This document shows, piece by piece, positions 946 through 29,202 of a DNA stretch of 64,000 nucleotides (position 1 is its first letter; each line of letters opens with the position of its first letter). Origin of the DNA: Escherichia coli (GTDB lineage: Bacteria; Pseudomonadota; Gammaproteobacteria; Enterobacterales; Enterobacteriaceae). Under the pieces are notes generated by a model. It ran no database searches. It worked only from the letters and a program-made list of their open reading frames with translations, and had not been told where the DNA came from. A program made the position numbers and the translations under genes. The DNA lies in assembly GCF_024700885.2 (NCBI RefSeq), contig NZ_CP117016.1; one strand, written 5' to 3'.

Positions 946-1123
946 AAATTAATTAACCAGATGAATGTTAATAGGGAAATTATTCATGACTGGTGGAATG
1001 CAGACCAATAACCAAATTCTCTAAATTAGAACAAATGGTTATTAATGAGGATGTCGATAAAAAAGAATAAAAAAACCGGAGCCCAATATTCATTCGACTC
1101 CGGTTTATTATTACAAAAGATGA

Positions 1124-2482
1124 TTACGCTACGTCTTCGTACTGCGGAACCGGATTACGGAAACTCTTGGTGACGCAAGCCAGGTAAATCAGACCGATAG
1201 CCGCCCAGATCAGACCCAGAACCATTGAGCTTTCTTCCAGGTTAACCCACAGCGCACCAACGGTCAGCGCACCACACATCGGCAGGAACAGATACTGGAA
1301 GTGATCTTTCAGCGTCTTGTTACGCTTCTCACGGATCCAGAACTGCGAGATGACCGACAGGTTAACGAAGGTGAACGCCACCAACGCACCAAAGTTGATC
1401 AGCGCTGTAGCCATTACCAGGTCGAAGTTGATTGCCAGCAAGGCAATCGCGCCAACCAGGATGATGTTCATCGCCGGAGTACGCCATTTCGGGTGTACAT
1501 AACCGAAGAAGCTTTTCGGGAATACGCCGTCACGCCCCATTACGTACATCAGACGCGCAACGCCTGCATGCGCCGCCATACCGGACGCCAGTACGGTAAT
1601 GGTGGAGAAGATCAGCGCACCAACCTGGAATGCTTTACCTGCAACATACAGCATGATTTCAGGCTGTGACGCATCCGGATCTTTAAAGCGAGAGATATCC
1701 GGGAAGTACAGCTGCAGGAAGTAAGTTGCAAAGATGAAGATCATGCCGCCAATCAGCGCGGTCAGGAAAATCGCACGCGGGATCACGCGCTCTGCATCTT
1801 TGGTTTCTTCCGACAGGTTGCTGATGCCGTCAAAGCCGGTAAAGGAGAAGCACAGGATTGTCGCCCCGGTAATCATCGGGATAACATGCGCATCGCCAGA
1901 CCAGAATGGACGAGTGCTCGCCAGCGTACCAGCGCCTTCACCTTCAAATACGCCATAAACAACCATGCCCAGAATCACCGCGATCAGCACTACCTGCAAC
2001 ACGACGATTACAGTGTTGAAGTTCGCTACGGATTTCAGACTACGCAGGTTAAAGGCGGTCATAAAGGCCACCAGCGCCACCACAAACATCCACGATGGGA
2101 TGGAAGGCACCAGAGCTTCAAAATAAATTTTCGCCAGCAGAATGTTGATCATCGGCGCGAACAGATAGTCGAGCAGAGAAGACCAACCCACCATAAAGCC
2201 GACAGTCGGGCTAATGGATTTCTGGGCGTAAGTGTATGCAGAGCCAGCAGAAGGATAGCGGCGAACCAGCTTCCCGTAGCTCAGAGCCGTAAACAGGATC
2301 GCAATCAATGCGAACGCATAGGCTGTCGGCACATGACCATCCGTGAGGCCTGAAACGATACCAAAAGTATCAAACAGCGTCATCGGCTGCATATAGGCAA
2401 GACCCATCATTACAACCGGAACTAACGTAAGCGTTTTACGCAATTCCACGCGAGAGGTGTTTGGAGTAACGTTATGCGACAT
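1124..2482 (-). CDS. plaP: Putrescine importer PlaP (APC-family amino acid/polyamine permease)
   Basis: 454-aa ORF in the track (1124..2488); start moved to the [16 protein letters not shown] methionine that I recall as the K-12 PlaP N-terminus. Confidence 0.85.
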
Positions 2483-2748
2483 GGTCATTCTCCTTTACGG
2501 TGATAACCGTCGCGTAAGCAAAAAATTGCCCCATTTTTTTGGATTCCTCAGCGACAACAACTGTCGATTTTTAGTAAATATCTATCCGGTACGAAGCCCG
2601 GCCTCTTGGTATGAATGATTGGTTTGAAGCAAAAAATAACCGACGCTGATGAAACGTCGGTTTTTAGTCATTTTTTGACAGCGGCGCATTGTGCCTAAAT
2701 GGGGGGGAAATGACAAGAGAATGAGAGGCTTGTCATAATAATTTTTCT

Positions 2749-3678
2749 TTAAATGGCTGATTTTCCGTCATCAGATTTTGCATAAACACCGGCGATCGCA
2801 CTATTTGCTAAAATTTCATCCCGCCACCAGCCGCTGGCAAGCCCTGCGGTCTGTTCATTCCAGCCAATCCAGACGGGTTCAAAGAGAGTTTGGGCGACCA
2901 CTTTCTTCTCGATTAACGCGCCACTATCGAGAAACCGTTGCGCCAGATAACGGGGTAAATAGCCGCAGCCGAGGCCGCTAATTTGCAGCTCCAGCTTGGT
3001 TTTAAAATCGAAAACGGTAATGGCTTCTTGTTCGTCGAGAAGTTGTGAGGCCGTAGAAGCGCCTGCCTGCGCAGTATCCCCCACCACAATCGCCCGATAT
3101 CGCTTAATAATACGACGGTTTAACGGCTCTTCTTCCAGAGCTAACGGATGATGAGGCGCGACCGCAAAGACTTGTTCCAGATCGCCCAACCGTGAAAAAC
3201 CAAACTCACTGGAAGATGGTGGCTCATGCATCGCGCCAACAATAATATCCGCTCGCCCCTGAGTCAGGGCATCCCAGGAACCACCGAGTACGCCATTGAT
3301 AAACTTCAGGCGCGTCACGCTATGATGTTGATAAAAAGCTTCAATCAGTGGCGCAAGCAGAGAAAAAGGAAACGTGTCGTCCACGCCAATCACCAGCTCG
3401 TTTTCCCAGCCTTCATGCAGTTTGATCGCCTGCTTTTCCAGTTCTCGCACGGTATGCAGAACTTCCCGCCCTTTCTCTAATAACATTTTTCCGGTACGGG
3501 TGAATTTAGCGCGGTGACCGCTACGATCAAGCAATTGAATATTAAGGTCGCTTTCCAGCTTGTGAACGGTGTAACTCAGAGCGGACGGCGTCTTATAGAG
3601 TTTGGCCGACGCCGCCGCAAAACTGCCTTCTTTTTCTAAGGCATCGAGGATCATCAACACATCCAGCAGTGGTTTCAT
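2749..3678 (-). CDS. yeeY: LysR-family transcriptional regulator YeeY
   Basis: ORF 2749..3699; start trimmed to MKPLLDVLMILDALEKEGSFAAASAKL (N-terminal LysR HTH). Confidence 0.8.
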   Translation of the reverse strand: MKPLLDVLMILDALEKEGSFAAASAKLYKTPSALSYTVHKLESDLNIQLLDRSGHRAKFTRTGKMLLEKGREVLHTVRELEKQAIKLHEGWENELVIGVDDTFPFSLLAPLIEAFYQHHSVTRLKFINGVLGGSWDALTQGRADIIVGAMHEPPSSSEFGFSRLGDLEQVFAVAPHHPLALEEEPLNRRIIKRYRAIVVGDTAQAGASTASQLLDEQEAITVFDFKTKLELQISGLGCGYLPRYLAQRFLDSGALIEKKVVAQTLFEPVWIGWNEQTAGLASGWWRDEILANSAIAGVYAKSDDGKSAI

Positions 3679-3723
3679 ACACGCCCCCTTGCAGTGCATG
3701 CGGCGTCCTGCTGGCGTGATCGT

Positions 3724-4548
3724 TTACTCCAGCGGCATTACCAGCGGATCGGGATACTGGTATTCAAATCCCAGTTCATTACAAATCCGACTGCCATCAA
3801 TAATCTTACCTTTGCCGCTGTCCAGACTATTTCTGAACTGCGGAGGCTCCAGCCCCAGTAAACGGGCCATCTGCGGATAGAAAACATTACGCGCAGGGTG
3901 AGCTGGCGCGCATATATTATAGATGTGTCCGCCTTTAGGTGCCTGTAACAACAGAGTGATAGCGCCAATAACATCTTCTAAATGGACTAAATTAACACCA
4001 TGTTCACCATCAGGCGCGGTTTTTCCGGCAAAGAAGCGTCCGGGATGACGTCCCGGTCCGACCAGCCCCGCAAGACGCAGAATATCGACCGAAGTACCGG
4101 GTAAATTGTGCAGCCAGTCTTCGAGTTCTTCTAATACTCGTCCACTGTTGGTTACCGGATTACGCGGGGTAGTTTCTTTCACCGTGCCTTGCGCGTCGCC
4201 ATAGACAGATGTTGAGCTGGTAAAAATAATGCGGGGAATACGATGGGCCAGCGCGCTATCCACTAACTCTTGTACCGCTTGTAAATAGAACTCATCGCCG
4301 GGGCCGCTACGACGTGCCGGAAGCGTAATGACCAGCGCATCGACATCCATCAGGGCATCCAGATCGTCAGAATCGCAAACTAACTCAGGCTCCATGCGAA
4401 GCAGATAGCTATCAATGCCACTCATTCGGGCCGCTTCGACACCATCTTGTGTGGTTTTACTCCCGGTGACTTGCCAGCCTCGCGCTGAAAGTGACATCGC
4501 CAGCGGCATGCCTAACCACCCTAACCCGACAATTGCGACCTTTTTCAT
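3724..4548 (-). CDS. yeeZ: NAD-dependent epimerase/dehydratase family protein YeeZ
   Basis: 274-aa ORF with N-terminal Rossmann motif VAIVGLGWLG; position matches K-12 synteny. Confidence 0.8.
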   Translation of the reverse strand: MKKVAIVGLGWLGMPLAMSLSARGWQVTGSKTTQDGVEAARMSGIDSYLLRMEPELVCDSDDLDALMDVDALVITLPARRSGPGDEFYLQAVQELVDSALAHRIPRIIFTSSTSVYGDAQGTVKETTPRNPVTNSGRVLEELEDWLHNLPGTSVDILRLAGLVGPGRHPGRFFAGKTAPDGEHGVNLVHLEDVIGAITLLLQAPKGGHIYNICAPAHPARNVFYPQMARLLGLEPPQFRNSLDSGKGKIIDGSRICNELGFEYQYPDPLVMPLE

Positions 4549-4630
4549 CCGTTATCTCCTGATACACCTTAGATCTATAAGGCTACGCTAGCGTATCAAA
4601 ACTGACAATTCATTCTATGAATGAATCTGT

Positions 4631-4885
4631 TCAATAATGATAACGACATGCTGCAATGAGCAGTGAATCGTCGGTAACCGCGTATACCAGACGGTGCTCC
4701 TCTGTAATGCGTCGGGACCAGAAACCTGACAAATTATGTTTCAGGGGTTCTGGCTTCCCCTTACCTTCAAATGGCGTTCTGCGGGTATCTTTGATAAGTT
4801 CATTGATCTTTTTAACAATTCGCTTATCTGTTTCCTGCCAGTACAGATAATCGTCCCATGATTCCTCAGACCAGATTAGTTTCAC
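4631..4885 (-). CDS. yoeB: Type II toxin YoeB (ribosome-dependent mRNA interferase)
   Basis: 84-aa [87 protein letters not shown]; overlaps the upstream antitoxin by 4 bp. Confidence 0.9.
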
Positions 4886-5133
4886 TCAATGATGTCCTTT
4901 TCCGTTCCTTTGCCTGATTTCAGGCTATCGATTGAGTCCATCAATCTCCGGGCGTTAGCGGGGGAGCGCAGTAGATAAGCCGTCTCTTCCAGCGAGTTGT
5001 ATTCTTCGAGTGACATCAGAACACAAGCCTCTCCATTCTGACGAGTAATAAGGATCGGGGCATGATCTTCAACGGCTTTCATCATTGTTGCCGACAAATT
5101 CTGACGCGCTTCGCTGTAGCTAATTGTACGCAT
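4882..5133 (-). CDS. yefM: Type II antitoxin YefM
   Basis: Track ORF 4882..5160; start trimmed to [55 protein letters not shown] (83 aa). Confidence 0.9.
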
Positions 5134-5415
5134 GTCAATCTCCTCTTTTGTACAGTTCATTGTACAATGATGAGCGTTAATTAACTATTTATTAATTAGT
5201 TTGTAGATCAAGGTATTGTCAGTGAGACGAAAATCCAGGCTTCGCTATTTTTGGTGCCATCAGCTTAGAGGACAGTCCTCTTAGCCCCCTCCTTTCCCCG
5301 CTCATTCATTAAACAAATCCATTGCCATAAAATATATAAAAAAGCCCTTGCTTTCTAACGTGAAAGTGGTTTAGGTTAAAAGACATCAGTTGAATAAACA
5401 TTCACAGAGACTTTT

Positions 5416-5466
5416 ATGACACGCGTTCAATTTAAACACCACCATCATCACCATCATCCTGACTAG
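5416..5466 (+). CDS. hisL: his operon leader peptide with seven consecutive His codons
   Basis: atgacacgcgttcaatttaaacaccaccatcatcaccatcatcctgactag translates to MTRVQFKHHHHHHHPD*. Confidence 0.95.
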   Translation: MTRVQFKHHHHHHHPD

Positions 5467-5527
5467 TCTTTCAGGCGATGTGTGCTGGAAGACATTCAGA
5501 TCTTCCAGTGGTGCATGAACGCATGAG

Positions 5528-5566
5528 AAAGCCCCCGGAAGATCACCTTCCGGGGGCTTTTTTATT
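5528..5566 (+). terminator. his attenuator, Rho-independent terminator hairpin
   Basis: GC-rich inverted repeat aaagcccccggaag / cttccgggggcttt followed by a T-run, between hisL and hisG. Confidence 0.85.
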
Positions 5567-5611
5567 GCGCGGTTGATAACGGTTCAGACAGGTTTAAAGA
5601 GGAATAAGAAA

Positions 5612-6511
5612 ATGACAGACAACACTCGTTTACGCATAGCTATGCAGAAATCCGGCCGTTTAAGTGATGACTCACGCGAATTGCTGGCGCGCTGTGGCAT
5701 TAAAATCAATCTTCACACCCAGCGCCTGATCGCGATGGCAGAAAACATGCCGATTGATATTCTGCGCGTGCGTGACGACGACATTCCCGGTCTGGTAATG
5801 GATGGCGTGGTAGACCTTGGGATTATCGGCGAAAACGTGCTGGAAGAAGAGCTGCTTAACCGCCGCGCCCAGGGTGAAGATCCACGCTACTTTACCCTGC
5901 GTCGTCTGGATTTCGGCGGCTGCCGTCTTTCGCTGGCAACGCCAGTTGATGAAGCCTGGGACGGCCCGCTCTCCTTAAACGGTAAACGTATCGCCACCTC
6001 TTATCCTCACCTGCTCAAGCGTTATCTCGACCAGAAAGGCATCTCTTTTAAATCCTGCTTACTGAACGGTTCTGTTGAAGTCGCCCCGCGTGCCGGACTG
6101 GCGGATGCGATTTGCGATCTGGTTTCCACCGGTGCCACGCTGGAAGCTAACGGCCTGCGCGAAGTCGAAGTTATCTACCGCTCGAAAGCCTGCCTGATCC
6201 AGCGCGATGGCGAAATGGAAGAATCCAAACAGCAACTGATCGACAAACTGCTGACCCGTATTCAGGGTGTGATCCAGGCGCGCGAATCAAAATACATCAT
6301 GATGCACGCACCGACCGAACGTCTGGATGAAGTCATCGCCCTGCTGCCAGGTGCCGAACGCCCAACTATTCTACCGCTGGCGGGTGATCAACAGCGCGTA
6401 GCGATGCACATGGTCAGTAGCGAAACCCTGTTCTGGGAAACCATGGAAAAACTGAAAGCGCTGGGTGCCAGTTCAATCCTGGTCCTGCCGATTGAGAAGA
6501 TGATGGAGTGA
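5612..6511 (+). CDS. hisG: ATP phosphoribosyltransferase
   Basis: Track ORF 5573..6511; start set at [25 protein letters not shown]. Confidence 0.9.
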
Positions 6512-6516
6512 TCGCC

Positions 6517-8887
<2,371 letters not shown>

Positions 8888-22941: not shown

Positions 22942-23928
22942 CTATATATACCAGTTCTTAAGCAAATCATCTGTTTTTGAGGTGCCACGCTCTCCAATAC
23001 CATGTATATATGCCGAAATCAACACATATCTGTAAAGAATTGGGAAATAGAGTTTTTTATTTGCATCTGTTTTTTTTAAAAATTGTATTATTTTTTTAAA
23101 AATAAATTTATTGAAAAATATTGATTGGCATATTTTACTAAACGTTTTGTGTTTACTAAATATTTTCTCAACTAGGAATAATTTTTTATTAGTAGAAAAC
23201 ATTTCAGGCCTTACTTTGCTTAATACATTCATACCATCACGTGCTGTAGCACGAATTTTTTTTGTATATCCTTCTATATCGCCACTGTATTCGTGATGTA
23301 ATATTTTAAAATCAGCAAAAATAATTTTGAAGTCATTTTTTTCAAGTTGCCACCCAAACTCATGATCTTCACAACCATAACCAATAAAATTTTCATTATA
23401 TGAAACTATACCTGATGAAAATGCCTTTCTATCAAGAACACAATTCATTGCGACAAAAGTCCAGGCATTCATAGAGATATCAGGACTATCACTAAACTTA
23501 GGGTGTAAAGAGTTCCTGTAGCGATAGTAATTGCTGGTCTCAATGAGTTCATTTTCGAATCTAACTTCCCCACATAAAACGCTTTTACTATTCATTTTTT
23601 TTAAATAGTTCAGCAACGATGATATATATCCACTTGCGGGTATACAATCATCATCAAGAAATATTAAATAATCCCCATGGGCTAGGGATGCTCCGAAATT
23701 GCGCTTAGCGGAGAGTATATTTTTAGTATGTTGATGGATAATATTAATATTTTTCTTTTTATGAATATTATCAGCAACTACATCATCAATTTCTTTACCA
23801 CTATGACTATCGGAAACAATTACTTCTAGGTGTAGACTATTGTCTTTAGCCTGAGAATCGAGCTCAGAGAGAATCAATTCTAATTGAACTGGGCGTTTCC
23901 AAACAGATATTATTACCGAGATATTCAT
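22942..23928 (-). CDS. GT2-family glycosyltransferase
   Basis: 328-aa ORF MNISVIISVWKRPVQLELILSELDSQ... with DDD motif (YLIFLDDDCIP); 4-bp overlap with wzx. Confidence 0.7.
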   Translation of the reverse strand: MNISVIISVWKRPVQLELILSELDSQAKDNSLHLEVIVSDSHSGKEIDDVVADNIHKKKNINIIHQHTKNILSAKRNFGASLAHGDYLIFLDDDCIPASGYISSLLNYLKKMNSKSVLCGEVRFENELIETSNYYRYRNSLHPKFSDSPDISMNAWTFVAMNCVLDRKAFSSGIVSYNENFIGYGCEDHEFGWQLEKNDFKIIFADFKILHHEYSGDIEGYTKKIRATARDGMNVLSKVRPEMFSTNKKLFLVEKIFSKHKTFSKICQSIFFNKFIFKKIIQFLKKTDANKKLYFPILYRYVLISAYIHGIGERGTSKTDDLLKNWYI

Positions 23929-25169
23929 AATTTATGAGGCCTACATACGGTTTTATTTACTTTAATGAATTGTTTAAGCATTCCCATGCCAACGAAAATT
24001 TCAGCTACAATAAGACTCACAATCGCACCCGTTGCTCCATAATATTTACATGCTGGATAAACTATGCTTAAACAAGTAATAGTTCCTAGGAAAATAGATT
24101 TGAAATACTGTTTTTGCATCCCATTAGGTACTAATACAAGTAACCCGACAACTGTATTAAAACCTATGAATATAGGAAGCAATGTCATTAATTGCATTGC
24201 ACCTGCAATTACTTCACCTTTCATGCCGAATATTAATAATGATAATTGGTTGGCAAAAAGTAAAAATGGTATTGCTAAAGCCATGTAAAAAACAAGCAAG
24301 TATTTAAGAATCATTCTAGATTTTAAGTTTGCAATATATGGATTCTCTCTTTGCAAAATGTTAATTCTTGGATAAAAAGCTTGGACTAATGGTGATGCAA
24401 GTCCAGCCAAACCTTGTTTGATCATGTTAGCTGAGTTAAAGATGCCTACATCAAACTTTCCAGATACGCCACCCAATACAAGAGGGGTCAACATTGTGTA
24501 TGCACTAGTCGCAAGTGTTGAACAAAAAAAATGAAATCCATTTTTTAAAATTACTTGAATTTTCTTTATCGGTGGCCTACATAAAAAAATCTCCTTGATA
24601 ATAAGTAAGTAGGCAACGCCACAGAATGAATACAAAATATATGGCATGCTCAATAATAAGGCACTGATGTACATCGGCGTTGCGGGTTTTATAATTAGAT
24701 AAACTGCAACGACTGCTATGCCTCGTGAAAATAGTGACAGCACAGCCATCACACTCATCATTTCCTTACCTTGCAAAAACCAATTTGGATTGAAAACACC
24801 TGCAATTACGGACAGAAAACCAACACATAACAAAGACTTAACGTCGTTAAAAACATAAAAAAAACAGAGTATTATGAGTATTATAGCTGCAATTAGCATT
24901 AATATAAAACGAGCAAGCACCACACCGCAAAAAAATTCAGAATGGTATTTTTTATCGTTATTTAGTGCTATTTCTCTTGTCCCACTATATCCAAAACCAT
25001 ATTCAACAACCATTAACAACACTTGTATAGTTATCAATGAAAAACTCAGATCACCAAAATTCGATACACCAATGACTCTAACAAGATAAGGAAAAATTAA
25101 TAATGGCAGTAGGTAATTGGCACCCTGACTTATTGCAAGGTAAAGAACATTTAGTTTAGTTTTGCTCAA
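23925..25169 (-). CDS. wzx: O-antigen flippase
   Basis: 414-aa multi-pass membrane ORF MSKTKLNVLYLAISQGANYLLPLLIFPYLVRVIGVSNFGDL... (polysaccharide biosynthesis/MOP-type N-terminus). Confidence 0.7.
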   Translation of the reverse strand: MSKTKLNVLYLAISQGANYLLPLLIFPYLVRVIGVSNFGDLSFSLITIQVLLMVVEYGFGYSGTREIALNNDKKYHSEFFCGVVLARFILMLIAAIILIILCFFYVFNDVKSLLCVGFLSVIAGVFNPNWFLQGKEMMSVMAVLSLFSRGIAVVAVYLIIKPATPMYISALLLSMPYILYSFCGVAYLLIIKEIFLCRPPIKKIQVILKNGFHFFCSTLATSAYTMLTPLVLGGVSGKFDVGIFNSANMIKQGLAGLASPLVQAFYPRINILQRENPYIANLKSRMILKYLLVFYMALAIPFLLFANQLSLLIFGMKGEVIAGAMQLMTLLPIFIGFNTVVGLLVLVPNGMQKQYFKSIFLGTITCLSIVYPACKYYGATGAIVSLIVAEIFVGMGMLKQFIKVNKTVCRPHKL

Positions 25170-25247
25170 TGAAGTGCCCCATATACAACAGATATCATTC
25201 GAGTAACTTATTCACATGAATCAATAAGTTGTTTATTCAGGGCAAGA

Positions 25248-26321
25248 TTACGAAAGCCCGCTCCCCGCAAGAACTGACGCCAGATAGTTTCTGTCCATGG
25301 CTGCTTTTCGCATCTTACGTCTTAACCCTGCCTTGAATACCTTATCATTCGTCAAAATATTAATAGCAATGTGCCGTATCCCTGAAAATAAATCTGCTGC
25401 ATTTCCTCTTCTTATTTTGCAGTCGTCTTCATTCATTACCACGTCCAGACGCCAGTGCAGCTTATTCTCCACGTGCCAGTGGTTTCGGATTGCTGTGGCG
25501 AACTTCTCTGCGGTTAAATCAGCAGAACTGATATAATATCTGACCGTCATTTCTGGCTCTTTCTTTTGTTCTGCTATTATTGACCGAAAGGAGACTGCCA
25601 CGCATAATTTCTTCAGACCTTTCCATTCAAACGTGAAATCAAAAAGTTCATCAGGGACATCGCAAACAATATGAAGACGGATTTCGTCTCTGCCGTGACT
25701 CTTTTCACTCATTGCGTAACTGTCATGCTCTGGATTATTTAATTCTTTCAGTGGAAATTTTTCCTCAAAGGCTTTATTAAGCCGCCCCTGATTTCCTTTT
25801 ACAGCGAATAAATAATCACCGCCCTGTTTTTGTATCTTCTCTGCAATATCTTTCTGGCAACCCATCGCATCAGTTGTGATGATTTTTCCTTTAATATCCA
25901 GCATGTTAAGAAGTTCAGGGATAGCTGTAATTTCATTGGATTTCTCATCCGTCCTGATCTGTCCGATGACCAGACTGTGCATTGTTGAGAACGCACTAAT
26001 GACATGAATCGCTCCCTTGCGGCGACTCTTGTCATAAGAATGCCGGAGTGTTTTTCCATCAATTGCGATGAAGTCTTTATCATCTGAAGAATGGCAGTCA
26101 CGCATCCAGTTAATAAAGCACTCGTGAAATTTTGCAGGACTGATACAGGATACAACTCTGGCAATGGTATCGTGAACAGGAATACCATTTTCAAAATCAC
26201 CATATTGCTTCAAAAAATCGAGATGTGTTTCCCCAAAATCCTCTATATCTTCCCAGCCTTCTGCACCCGAAATAACGGCACAAATAGTCAACAGTAGAAT
26301 ATCCGACAATTTATGTTCCAC
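25248..26321 (-). pseudogene. ISAs1-family (H-repeat-associated) transposase, outer copy, N-terminal ~20 codons separated by the nested insertion
   Basis: 357-aa ORF beginning [11 protein letters not shown] aligns to residue 22 onward of the 378-aa inner-copy ORF; roughly 15 substitutions by eye. Confidence 0.7.
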
Positions 26322-26344
26322 TTTCCAGGCTTGTCAGGGAAAGA

Positions 26345-27481
26345 TTACGAAAGCCCGCACCCCGCAAGGACTGACGCCAGATAGTTTCTGTCCATGGCTG
26401 CTTTTCGCATCTTACGTCTTAACCCTGCCTTGAATACCTTATCATTCGTCAAAATATTAATAGCGATGTGCCGTATCCCTGAAAATAATTCTGCTGCATT
26501 TCCTCTTCTTATTTTGCAGTCGTCTTCATTCATTACCACGTCCAGACGCCAGTGCAGCTTATTCTCCACGTGCCAGTGATTTCGGATCGCTGTGGCGAAC
26601 TTTTCTGCGGTTAAATCAGCAGAACTGATATAATATCTGACCGTCATTTCTAGCTCTTTCTTTTGTTCTGCTATTATGGACCGAAAGGAGACTGCCACGC
26701 ATAATTTCTTCAGTCCTTTCCATTCAAACGTGAAACCAATAAGTTCATCAGGGACATCGCAAACAATATGAAGACGGATTTCTTCTCTGCCGTGATTTTT
26801 TTCACTAATTGCGTAACTGTCATGCTCTGGATTATTTAATTCTTTCAGTGGAAATTTTTCCTCAAAGGCTTTATTAAGCCGCCCCTGATTTCCTTTTACA
26901 GTGAATAAATAATCACCGCCCTGTTTTTGTATCTTCTCTGCAATATCTTTCTGGCAACCCATCGCATCAGTTGTGATGATTTTTCCTTTAATATCCAGCA
27001 TGTTAAGAAGTTCAGGGATAGCTGTAATGTCATTGGATTTCTCATCCGTCCTGATCTGTCCGTTGACCAGACTGTGCATTGTTGAGAACGCACTAATGAC
27101 ATGAATCGCTCCCCTGCGGCGACTCTTGTCATAAGAATGCCGGAGTGTTTTTCCATCAATTGCGATGACGTCTTTATCATCTGAAGTATGGCAATCTCGC
27201 ATCCAGTTAATAAAGCACTCGTGAAATTTTGCAGGACTGATACAGGATACAACTCTGGCGATGGTATCGTGAACAGGAATACCATTTTCAATATCACCGT
27301 ATTGTTTTAAAAAATCGAGATGTGTTTCCCCAAAATCCTCTATATCTTCCCAACCTTCTGCACCAGAAATAACGGCACAAATAGTCAACAGTAGAATATC
27401 CGATAATTTATGTTCCACTTTCCAGGCTTGTCTGTAATCGGGGATAATAGAAATATGTTCCATCAATTTTTTAAGTTCCAT
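26345..27481 (-). CDS. ISAs1-family (H-repeat-associated) transposase, intact inner copy
   Basis: 378-aa [66 protein letters not shown]..., recognised as the E. coli H-repeat protein family (YhhI-like). Confidence 0.85.
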
Positions 27482-27834
27482 TTTGTTCTCCTTAATTATG
27501 TAAGGAGTATTTGATCATGTATAAGCAATAAAAAACAGCTTTATGTAATGAGGAATATCTCAATTTTTAAACATAAAATGCGAATTGTTTAGTACAAAAA
27601 AGCAGCATTACGTGATCTTTCCCTGCCAGGCTTGTCTGTAATCGGGAATAACAGAAATATGTTCCATCAATTTTTTAAGTTCCATTTTGTTCTCCTTATT
27701 TAAGCAAGGAGTATTTGATCATATATAAGCTGTGAAAAACAGTTTTAGGTAATGAGGGATATCTCAATTTTTGAACATAAAATGCGAATTATTTAGTACA
27801 AAAAGTGTACTTCTGATAATCTTTCCCTGCCCCT

Positions 27835-27878
27835 AGACACGCTACCGCCCCTGGCTTTACAGCTACCAGAGCACTGCA
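27835..27878 (-). promoter_or_regulatory. JUMPstart element with ops site (RfaH loading site) for the O-antigen operon
   Basis: + strand cacgctaccgcc at 27838..27849 is the reverse complement of the ops consensus GGCGGTAGCGTG; the surrounding ~40 bp closely match the copy upstream of wza. Confidence 0.8.
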
Positions 27879-28134
27879 TGCATGCCTACGATGTAGCGAG
27901 CGTTACCCACTCGCGCTAAACCCGAAAAATTCAAACGCTAATTGTCTTACCAATCCGCTCTGGAAACAAGGAAAATCCTGGAAAACTTTGACTAAAATCC
28001 TATTGCTAACTCGTTGTTATTCTGATTGTTTATATAAAACAACGGCAGGAAAATTCGCAGCAAATTACTTTCGCCACGAATCTTCACTGCCGTTATAATT
28101 TTCTTATCAACCGTTACATTCGGTCAGATTTTCA

Positions 28135-29028
28135 TTATTCGCTTAACAGCTTCTCAATCCCTTTACGGAACTTCGCCCCTTCTTTCAGGTTGCGTAGTCC
28201 ATACTTCACAAATGCCTGCATATACCCCATTTTTTTACCGCAGTCGTAGCTGTCACCTGTCATCAGCATGGCATCAACGGACTGTTTTTTCGCCAGTTCA
28301 GCGATGGCATCAGTCAGCTGAATACGCCCCCATGCACCAGGCTGAGTGCGTTCAAGTTCCGGCCAAATATCTGCAGAAAGCACATAGCGACCAACGGCCA
28401 TGATGTCTGAGTCCAGCGTCTGCGGCTGATCCGGTTTTTCGATGAATTCAACAATGCGGCTGACTTTACCTTCACGGTCCAGTGGTTCTTTGGTCTGGAT
28501 GACCGAGTATTCAGAGAGGTCACCCGGCATACGTTTTGCCAGCACCTGGCTACGGCCCGTTTCATTGAAACGCGCAATCATGGCAGCAAGGTTGTAGCGC
28601 AGCGGGTCGGCACTGGCGTCGTCGATCACAACGTCCGGCAGTACCACGACAAATGGATTGTCACCAATGGCGGGTCGTGCACACAAAATGGAGTGGCCTA
28701 AACCTAAAGGTTCGCCCTGACGCACGTTCATAATGGTCACGCCCGGCGGACAGATGGACTGCACTTCCGCCAGTAGTTGACGCTTCACGCGCTGTTCAAG
28801 GAGAGATTCTAATTCATAAGAGGTGTCGAAGTGGTTTTCGACCGCGTTCTTGGACGCGTGAGTTACCAGGAGGATTTCTTTGATCCCTGCAGCCACAATC
28901 TCGTCAACGATGTACTGAATCATTGGCTTGTCGACGATCGGTAGCATCTCTTTGGGAATCGCCTTAGTGGCAGGCAACATATGCATCCCAAGACCCGCTA
29001 CAGGAATAACTGCTTTTAAATTCGTCAT
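28135..29028 (-). CDS. galF: UTP--glucose-1-phosphate uridylyltransferase-like regulatory subunit GalF
   Basis: Track ORF 28135..29040; start trimmed to [45 protein letters not shown]. Confidence 0.9.
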
Positions 29029-29202
29029 TATTTCATCCACCTGTAAAATGGTTGCTGAATTATAGCTTGTTCGATTTTTTTCGCCAGCATCAATTACCCT
29101 GAATTGATTACTGAATTACTTGTGATGTTACGCCGCTTCGTTGTGGATTGCAGTAGCATTGTTCCTAAGTATGGCTCCATTTTTCCAGGAATGGTCGCAA
29201 AT

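Follow-up and report, generated by a model that had tools for sequence, protein, structure and literature searches.

Anatomy of the locus

The window analysed here is a 64,000-nucleotide stretch of Escherichia coli DNA, and the interval 25238-27829 within it (2,592 bp, minus strand) contains nothing but sequence of ISEc1, an ISAs1-family insertion sequence known as the H-repeat of Rhs elements. This interval separates galF and the O-antigen operon leader from the O15 wzx gene. The nested ISEc1 pair stands where the E. coli O15 O-antigen gene cluster begins, and the JUMPstart/ops element lies 8 bp upstream of it (Table 1). An earlier note on this DNA had described two H-repeat/ISAs1 transposase genes in tandem, and both are present: one is an intact open reading frame, and the other lacks its N terminus. 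The same arrangement accounts for the annotation of O15 genomes, in which one intact and one "N-terminally truncated" ISAs1 transposase are found beside wzx.

Table 1. Features of the nested ISEc1 pair and its surroundings in the window
Feature	Coordinates	Strand	Description
O15 wzx	23925..25169	-	first O-antigen gene downstream of the IS pair; ORF; identical sequence is RefSeq 'O15 family O-antigen flippase'
Outer ISEc1, 3' part	25238..26334	-	1,097 bp; right terminal repeat CAGGGCAAGATTACG at 25238; 97% identical to inner copy
Outer transposase remnant ORF	25248-26321	-	357 aa, N-terminally truncated; NF033564, 414 bits
Target-site duplication, copy 1	26325..26334	.	CCAGGCTTGT, 10 bp; from repeat finding and element lengths
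Inner ISEc1 element	26335..27625	-	complete, 1,291 bp; ends CAGGGAAAGAT...ATCTTTCCCTG; inverted repeats found
Inner right terminal inverted repeat	26335..26352	+	CAGGGAAAGATTACGAAA on plus strand
Inner transposase gene	26345..27481	-	intact ORF, 378 aa; NF033564, 404 bits
Inner left terminal inverted repeat	27608..27625	-	CAGGGAAAGATCACGTAA on minus strand
Target-site duplication, copy 2	27626..27635	.	CCAGGCTTGT, 10 bp
Outer ISEc1, 5' part	27626..27829	-	204 bp including duplication; left terminal repeat ends at 27829; 144-bp leader; ATG at 27685; first 20 codons
JUMPstart/ops, O-antigen operon leader	27838..27876	-	Rfam RF01707, 60 bits (gathering score 35), E = 2.9e-12
galF	28135-29040		on the same side of the IS pair as the O-antigen operon leader

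The ends of both elements are marked by the terminal motif CAGGGNAAGATYA, which occurs at 25238 and 26335 on the plus strand and at 27625 and 27829 on the minus strand, exactly at the predicted element ends. The whole window has five matches to this motif, compared with 0.48 expected by chance. The two terminal inverted repeats of the inner element, CAGGGAAAGATCACGTAA and CAGGGAAAGATTACGAAA, match at 16 of 18 positions. A repeat finder detects two sets of direct repeats, one spaced by 1,097 bp (25237-25536 and 26334-26633, 97% identity) and one spaced by 204 bp (27422-27600 and 27626-27804, 92% identity). The latter is the 5' segment of about 195 bp that had been noticed as duplicated within the intact copy; the complete homologous 5' blocks extend over 27422-27625 and 27626-27829.

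When the two outer parts are rejoined (25238-26334 plus 27636-27829), they form a collinear element of 1,291 bp with an open 378-codon frame. This reconstructed outer element aligns end to end with the inner copy, which has the same length, and both read CAGGG...CCCTG from end to end. The inner copy interrupts the outer transposase at codons 17-20 (…YRQAW), in agreement with the earlier estimate of codon ~20. The outer gene is thereby split at codon 20, leaving a 5' fragment that would encode its first 20 residues, five further residues and then a stop. In strain MLI114, RefSeq lists the sequence identical to the outer 3' part as a pseudogene 'missing N-terminus'.

Transposase and family membership

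Elements of the ISAs1 family, as catalogued in ISfinder, have a single ORF, a length of about 1.2-1.5 kb and terminal inverted repeats of about 14-22 bp that start with CAGGG, and they generate target-site duplications of 8-10 bp. The inner copy has a single ORF of 378 aa, a length of 1,291 bp, CAGGG repeats matching at 16/18 positions and a 10-bp target duplication. Both ORFs match the NCBIfam profile NF033564 (ISAs1 family transposase equivalog; cutoff 70) with the scores given in Table 1. The inner transposase also matches PF13808 (DDE_Tnp_1_assoc) over residues 8-94 (4.2e-33) and PF01609 (DDE_Tnp_1) over residues 102-343 (2.5e-29). Judged by these profile matches, it is an ISAs1-family transposase with a predicted DDE domain architecture, and in some genomes RefSeq names it 'ISAs1-like element ISEc1 family transposase'. 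Its gene and both of its ends are intact, and the inner ISEc1 copy may still be mobile.

The O15 inner element resembles the ISEc1 copies at yhhI, ydcC and ybfD, with 95-97% identity over 1,291 bp, CAGGG termini and the DDE_Tnp_1_assoc and DDE_Tnp_1 domains. Unlike the Rhs-associated copies, the O15 pair resides at an O-antigen locus.

Length of the target-site duplication

The 11-mer CCAGGCTTGTC is found on both sides of the intact copy, at 26325-26335 and 27626-27636. The earlier note had reported this sequence correctly but placed its first occurrence one base too far along (26326..26336), and had read it as an 11-bp target-site duplication. A direct repeat does lie exactly at both inner ends, but it is 10 bp long. 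The 11-mer has a third occurrence, at 27422-27432, because it belongs to the IS sequence itself, so the informative fact is the overlap of the two outer halves. Numbered along the plus strand of the IS, the outer 3' part runs to position 1097 and the outer 5' part starts at 1088, an overlap of 10 bp. The eleventh base that the two sides share is a C (26335 and 27636). On one side it opens the inner terminal repeat, on the other it is the next base of the outer element, and the agreement between the two is coincidental. The target duplication of the O15 inner copy is the 10-bp sequence CCAGGCTTGT (ACAAGCCTGG on the IS strand).

A duplication of 11 bp is ruled out on two counts: the inner element would shrink to 1,290 bp and its ends would be asymmetric, and each of the five clean ISEc1 duplications measures 10 bp. 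The other four come from further ISEc1 insertions with the duplications GGCTTGTCTG (L004), GTCAACTGAC (L012, in tssA), CTATATAAGG (L010) and GGGTTCCAAT (L022). Together they fix the target duplication length of ISEc1 at 10 bp. The five share no apparent target consensus. Adjoining the O15 self-insertion site is GGAAAG, which matches the terminal repeat; this match was judged too short to be meaningful, and it is absent from the other targets.

Distribution of the junctions and the single-copy allele

The distribution of the arrangement was surveyed in 5,426 complete E. coli genomes with 50-bp megablast queries that take 25 bp from each side, so that a match must span the junction. The junction of wzx with the outer IS and that of the outer IS with JUMPstart were each found in 98 of these genomes, the inner-left junction in 62 and the canonical inner-right junction in 56. 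Every match is chromosomal and lies at the O15 locus, in genomes of diverse hosts, countries and laboratories. Among the 98 genomes found with each outer junction in the 5,426 searched, none belongs to another serogroup with an IS-JUMPstart junction. At least one nested genome is titled O15:H18, a label taken from the record title.

These counts bear on whether the pair could be an artefact of the source assembly, through an expanded repeat or a mis-join. Repeats of about 1.1 kb with 96-97% identity are a classic difficulty for short-read assemblers, but here the exact 50-bp inner-right junction recurs in 56 independent complete genomes and the other inner junction in 62. Three database genomes match the window at 100% identity over 2,851 bp (others among the matches listed are 98.5-98.8% identical), and the window is base-identical to strain MLI114 over 49,285 bp. 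The probability of an artefact is close to nil.

About 36 of the 98 O15-type genomes lack both inner junctions. The two that were looked at directly, C3 and PSJ-14 (loci L001 and L002), have one uninterrupted 1,291-bp copy with identical wzx and JUMPstart junctions. Both ends of this copy are of the outer type; it shows 24-26 differences from the outer element compared with 61-63 from the inner, and the reconstructed outer element aligns to the single-copy alleles without gaps. The single outer-type copy is the empty-site allele of the inner insertion. Such an allele is predicted if the inner copy arrived by transposition, and a tandem duplication makes no such prediction.

Divergence of the two copies

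The inner and outer elements differ at 56-58 of 1,291 nucleotides (4.4%), the lower figure being the count from the end-to-end alignment of the rejoined outer element with the inner copy. The difference rises to 8% in the 5' leader. Within the coding sequence there are 34 nucleotide differences, which fall in 18 synonymous and 16 non-synonymous codons and change 16 amino acids; the earlier note had estimated about 15 by eye. Its view that this is no recent tandem duplication agrees with the 4.4% divergence and with the several diverged nested forms found across many strains.

That the pair arose from one ISEc1 by tandem duplication or by unequal crossing-over, with the terminal and flanking repeats as by-products and no transposition, is extremely improbable. 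The copies are direct repeats in the same orientation, and unequal recombination does occur at this locus, as the deletion allele of PS1Phumofeces1 illustrates (see below). However, both terminal repeats of a complete 1,291-bp unit, and a 10-bp overlap of the outer halves, lie at the junction to the exact base, the copies are as far apart as described above, and the single-copy allele is outer-type throughout rather than a consensus of both copies. The complete inner unit, the flanking repeat, the collinear reconstructed outer element and the natural empty-site allele all point instead to the insertion of one copy into another, as the earlier note had proposed.

Of the 5,426 complete E. coli genomes, 5,342 carry ISEc1, the median being five places, and copies elsewhere are typically 95-97% identical to the inner copy. 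Because it is near-universal, occupies few places and has copies diverged to this extent, ISEc1 is an old, slow element. No donor of the inner element at 99% identity or above was found outside the O15 locus in the 5,426 complete genomes, where the best match is 97.4% identical. Between nested and single-copy alleles, the flanking O15 genes are 0.55% apart and the outer IS 1.9%; the higher divergence of the outer IS fits relaxed constraint on a dead copy.

A model of how the pair arose

Taken together, these data make it very probable that a diverged ISEc1 transposed, in the same orientation, into a resident ISEc1 between the JUMPstart/ops leader and O15 wzx, and that the pair has since been inherited and recombined. 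A resident ISEc1 would first have sat between the leader and wzx of the O15 cluster. The second element would have landed at codons 17-20 of the resident transposase gene, duplicating 10 bp of target and splitting and inactivating that gene, with its own transposase presumably catalysing the event. The inner copy would have retained both of its terminal repeats and an intact transposase gene. The nested pair would then have travelled with the O15 cluster, both by inheritance and by transfer between lineages, and have been remodelled via homologous recombination between its direct repeats. The direction of change is probably insertion rather than precise excision. Three points weigh against the simple account: the outer copy lacks a target duplication of its own, the best match to the inner element outside the O15 locus is 97.4% identical, and a genome paper describes H-repeat transposition as not observed in experiments (PMC3032704).

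The outer copy and the cluster boundary

The arrival of the outer copy is not documented as a simple insertion, because it has no target duplication of its own: its flanks read GTTGTTTATT and CCCCTAGACA. Most of the resident ISEc1 copies inspected are likewise without a duplication, including those at ydcC, yhhI, next to nrfB and at yafV-Rhs. The O15 inner copy differs from most resident copies in having both a clean 10-bp duplication and a natural empty-site allele.

The outer copy lies at the boundary of conserved and serogroup-specific DNA. ISAs1-family elements have been met at such loci before; IS1358 is a member of this family in the Vibrio cholerae rfb region. In Salmonella group D2 rfb, an H-repeat remnant at a recombination junction has been proposed as a mediator of cluster assembly (PMC3715488). 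The O15 case is similar in that an ISAs1-family element occupies an O-antigen cluster boundary and that the outer copy also lacks a duplication. Unlike the Salmonella D2 remnant, the O15 element is complete and has a second copy inside it, and any part that it played in assembling the O15 cluster would be hypothetical.

Transcription of the O-antigen genes from upstream of JUMPstart would have to read through the IS block. A promoter and terminator scan gave counts only slightly above shuffled expectation and nothing usable.

Later recombination at the locus

Several O15 alleles are derived forms of the kind expected from a nested pair. PS1Phumofeces1 has a 1,495-bp block made up of one complete chimeric IS together with the duplication and the outer 5' end of 204 bp. 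Its sequence is that predicted for an exact crossover product of the outer 3' part with the inner copy, a recombinational deletion of 1,097 bp. NCTC86 and B-2207 have a second kind of deletion: they keep the inner-left junction and have lost 168 bp of the outer copy beside the inner right end. In one nested sub-type, 11 bp of the dead outer gene are duplicated.

A reciprocal exchange is seen in all three further nested alleles that were compared in detail, those of Ecol_316, WP8-S17-ESBL-12 and ATCC 8739, in which, relative to the window, a patch of at least 464 bp has been swapped between the two copies. The swap was scored at 15 diagnostic sites in 25805-26268 and at their paralogues in 26902-27365. 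Two of the three alleles have 15/15 sites exchanged, and ATCC 8739 has 14 outer and 13 inner sites exchanged. The swap would arise by an intramolecular double crossover, with a circle excised and then re-integrated. In the window, the outer patch agrees with the single-copy allele at 11 of the 15 sites, for which reason the window's rarer nested form looks ancestral.

Comparison with other ISEc1 stacks

The O15 pair is an ordinary nested transposon and belongs to known biology. ISEc1 (H-rpt), ISAs1-family elements in O-antigen clusters, tandem H-repeats at Rhs loci and the insertion of one IS into another were already established, and IS-in-IS conglomerates are well described (PMC5756416). Unlike such conglomerates generally, the O15 pair is a self-insertion, by the same element and in the same orientation. 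No paper on a nested H-repeat in the O15 cluster was found in the literature searched, and the main texts of Iguchi 2014 and DebRoy 2016 do not mention one.

The closest parallels are the H-repeat stacks at Rhs loci, such as ybfD/ybfL/ybfQ beside RhsC in K-12 and the stack at yafV-Rhs, where the same element lies head to tail, with copies abutting or interrupting each other. The majority of Rhs stacks are truncated and do not resolve into single clean insertions, whereas the O15 pair is complete and can be reconstructed in full. At yafV-Rhs, STEC1575 and 26 other genomes have one complete ISEc1, flanked by the 10-bp duplication GGCTTGTCTG at IS coordinates 1091-1100, nested in a second copy of the same orientation. 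The O15 site, at 1088-1097, is 3 bp away. Other same-orientation stacks have breakpoints at plus-strand IS coordinates of about 771, 911, 1182 and 1271.

These stacks raise the question of whether the nested unit formed elsewhere, for example in an Rhs-associated stack, and was copied into the O15 ISEc1 by homologous recombination or gene conversion. Rhs loci often carry stacks of ISEc1, the nested pair in the 27 yafV-Rhs genomes is very similar, and patch exchange between ISEc1 copies is documented at the O15 locus itself. Nevertheless, the exact window junction occurs at the O15 locus only (56/56 matches), and the different duplication of the Rhs nested pair, with its 3-bp offset, indicates that this pair was not the source. 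Moreover, the outer halves around the inner copy are of the same lineage as the single-copy allele. Import of a ready-made unit is thus very unlikely, and transposition of the inner copy into the resident O15 element remains the preferred reading.

The proximity of the two self-insertion sites also invites the tentative suggestion, rather unlikely at present, that the first ~60 bp of the ISEc1 transposase gene contain a preferred site for the element's own insertion. Its basis is two self-insertion events, with no consensus in the five duplications and with a sampling of stacks that is biased by the queries used; coincidence or a shared regional accessibility would be alternatives.

Implications

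The transposition of H-repeat (H-rpt) elements 'has not been observed' experimentally, according to a genome paper (PMC3032704). For this element, an insertion-bearing and an empty-site allele exist as a natural pair at the O15 locus, a polymorphism of some small value. In the O15 alleles seen, 1.3, 1.5, 2.4 or 2.6 kb of IS DNA separate the JUMPstart/ops antitermination signal from the first O-antigen gene, and these alleles are thus natural material for the study of long-range read-through. The deletions and the reciprocal patch swap are records of recombination that could mark lineages of the O15 cluster.

If ISEc1 does favour a site in its own transposase gene, new copies would tend to knock out resident ones, a built-in limitation of copy number. 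That could be part of the reason why almost every E. coli genome has ISEc1, but in few copies that are rarely seen to move.

Exchange and deletion within the O15 nested pair

A patch no shorter than 464 bp has been exchanged reciprocally between the outer and inner ISEc1 copies when the window allele is compared with three other nested O15 alleles, those of Ecol_316, WP8-S17-ESBL-12, and ATCC 8739 (L013, L014, and L015). All 15 of the 15 diagnostic sites are swapped in the first two, at an offset of 1,097 bp, and in ATCC 8739 the swapped sites number 14 in the outer copy and 13 in the inner. The inferred cause of this exchange is intramolecular recombination, in the form of a double crossover with the two direct repeats as partners. 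On sequence comparison, the window form of the patch looks ancestral because its outer patch agrees with the single-copy allele, in which one outer-type ISEc1 is uninterrupted, at 11 of 15 diagnostic sites. The nested allele of the window is common to only three other genomes; the remaining nested O15 alleles among the matches listed are 98.5–98.8% identical to it.

Two further structures, found in three strains, are derived alleles of the nested pair. PS1Phumofeces1 carries a 1,097-bp recombinational deletion that leaves a complete chimeric IS followed by the 204-bp outer 5' end, and in both NCTC86 (L018) and B-2207 (L017) 168 bp of outer sequence are deleted beside the right end of the inner copy.

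Surroundings of the outer copy

Only 8 bp separate the outer ISEc1 from the JUMPstart/ops element, and the copy displays no target-site duplication when its flanks are compared (window 25228-25237 versus 27830-27839). Such duplications are likewise absent from most resident ISEc1 copies examined. A possible explanation for the outer copy is that DNA at this boundary of the O15 cluster was rearranged in association with the IS.

The spacer between galF and JUMPstart also yields a weak, sub-threshold Rfam match to the plant microRNA family MIR8001. It scores 30 bits, where the gathering score is 90, and almost certainly reflects a hairpin that arose by chance. Elsewhere in the window, the diguanylate cyclase gene dgcE is broken into overlapping ORFs (58323-58856 and 58615-61641), and RefSeq labels it frameshifted in the identical sequence of strain MLI114.

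Self-insertion and stacking at other loci

An independent, same-orientation insertion of ISEc1 into ISEc1 occurs at the yafV-Rhs locus in 27 genomes. As seen in STEC1575, it is flanked by the 10-bp duplication GGCTTGTCTG, 3 bp from the insertion point in the window, and the terminal 12 bp of its outermost left end are tandemly duplicated (two copies of GATCTTTCCCTG).

In eco-241, a group II intron encoding an LtrA reverse transcriptase/maturase interrupts ISEc1 between plus-strand IS coordinates 204 and 205, and another complete ISEc1 lies 21 bp away.

Head-to-tail, same-orientation ISEc1 stacks are common at Rhs-associated and other loci, with the interrupted copies broken at plus-strand IS coordinates of approximately 771, 911, 1182, and 1271.

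Coordinates of ISEc1 structures and other features
Feature	Sequence	Coordinates	Strand
Exchanged patch, outer copy	Window	25805-26268	
Exchanged patch, inner copy	Window	26902-27365	
MIR8001 match	Window	28033-28100	-
dgcE	Window	58323-61641	+
Recombinational deletion allele	L016 (PS1Phumofeces1)	3026-4520	
yafV-Rhs nested pair	L004 (STEC1575)	2466-5055	
Intron-interrupted ISEc1	L006 (eco-241)	3776-6956	
ISEc1 stack	L007 (K-12 derivative MGY)	1287-3900	
ISEc1 stack	L011 (E. coli W)	966-2776	
ISEc1 stack	L005 (WG5)	3236-4936	
ISEc1 stack	L010 (APEC IMT5155)	965-3550
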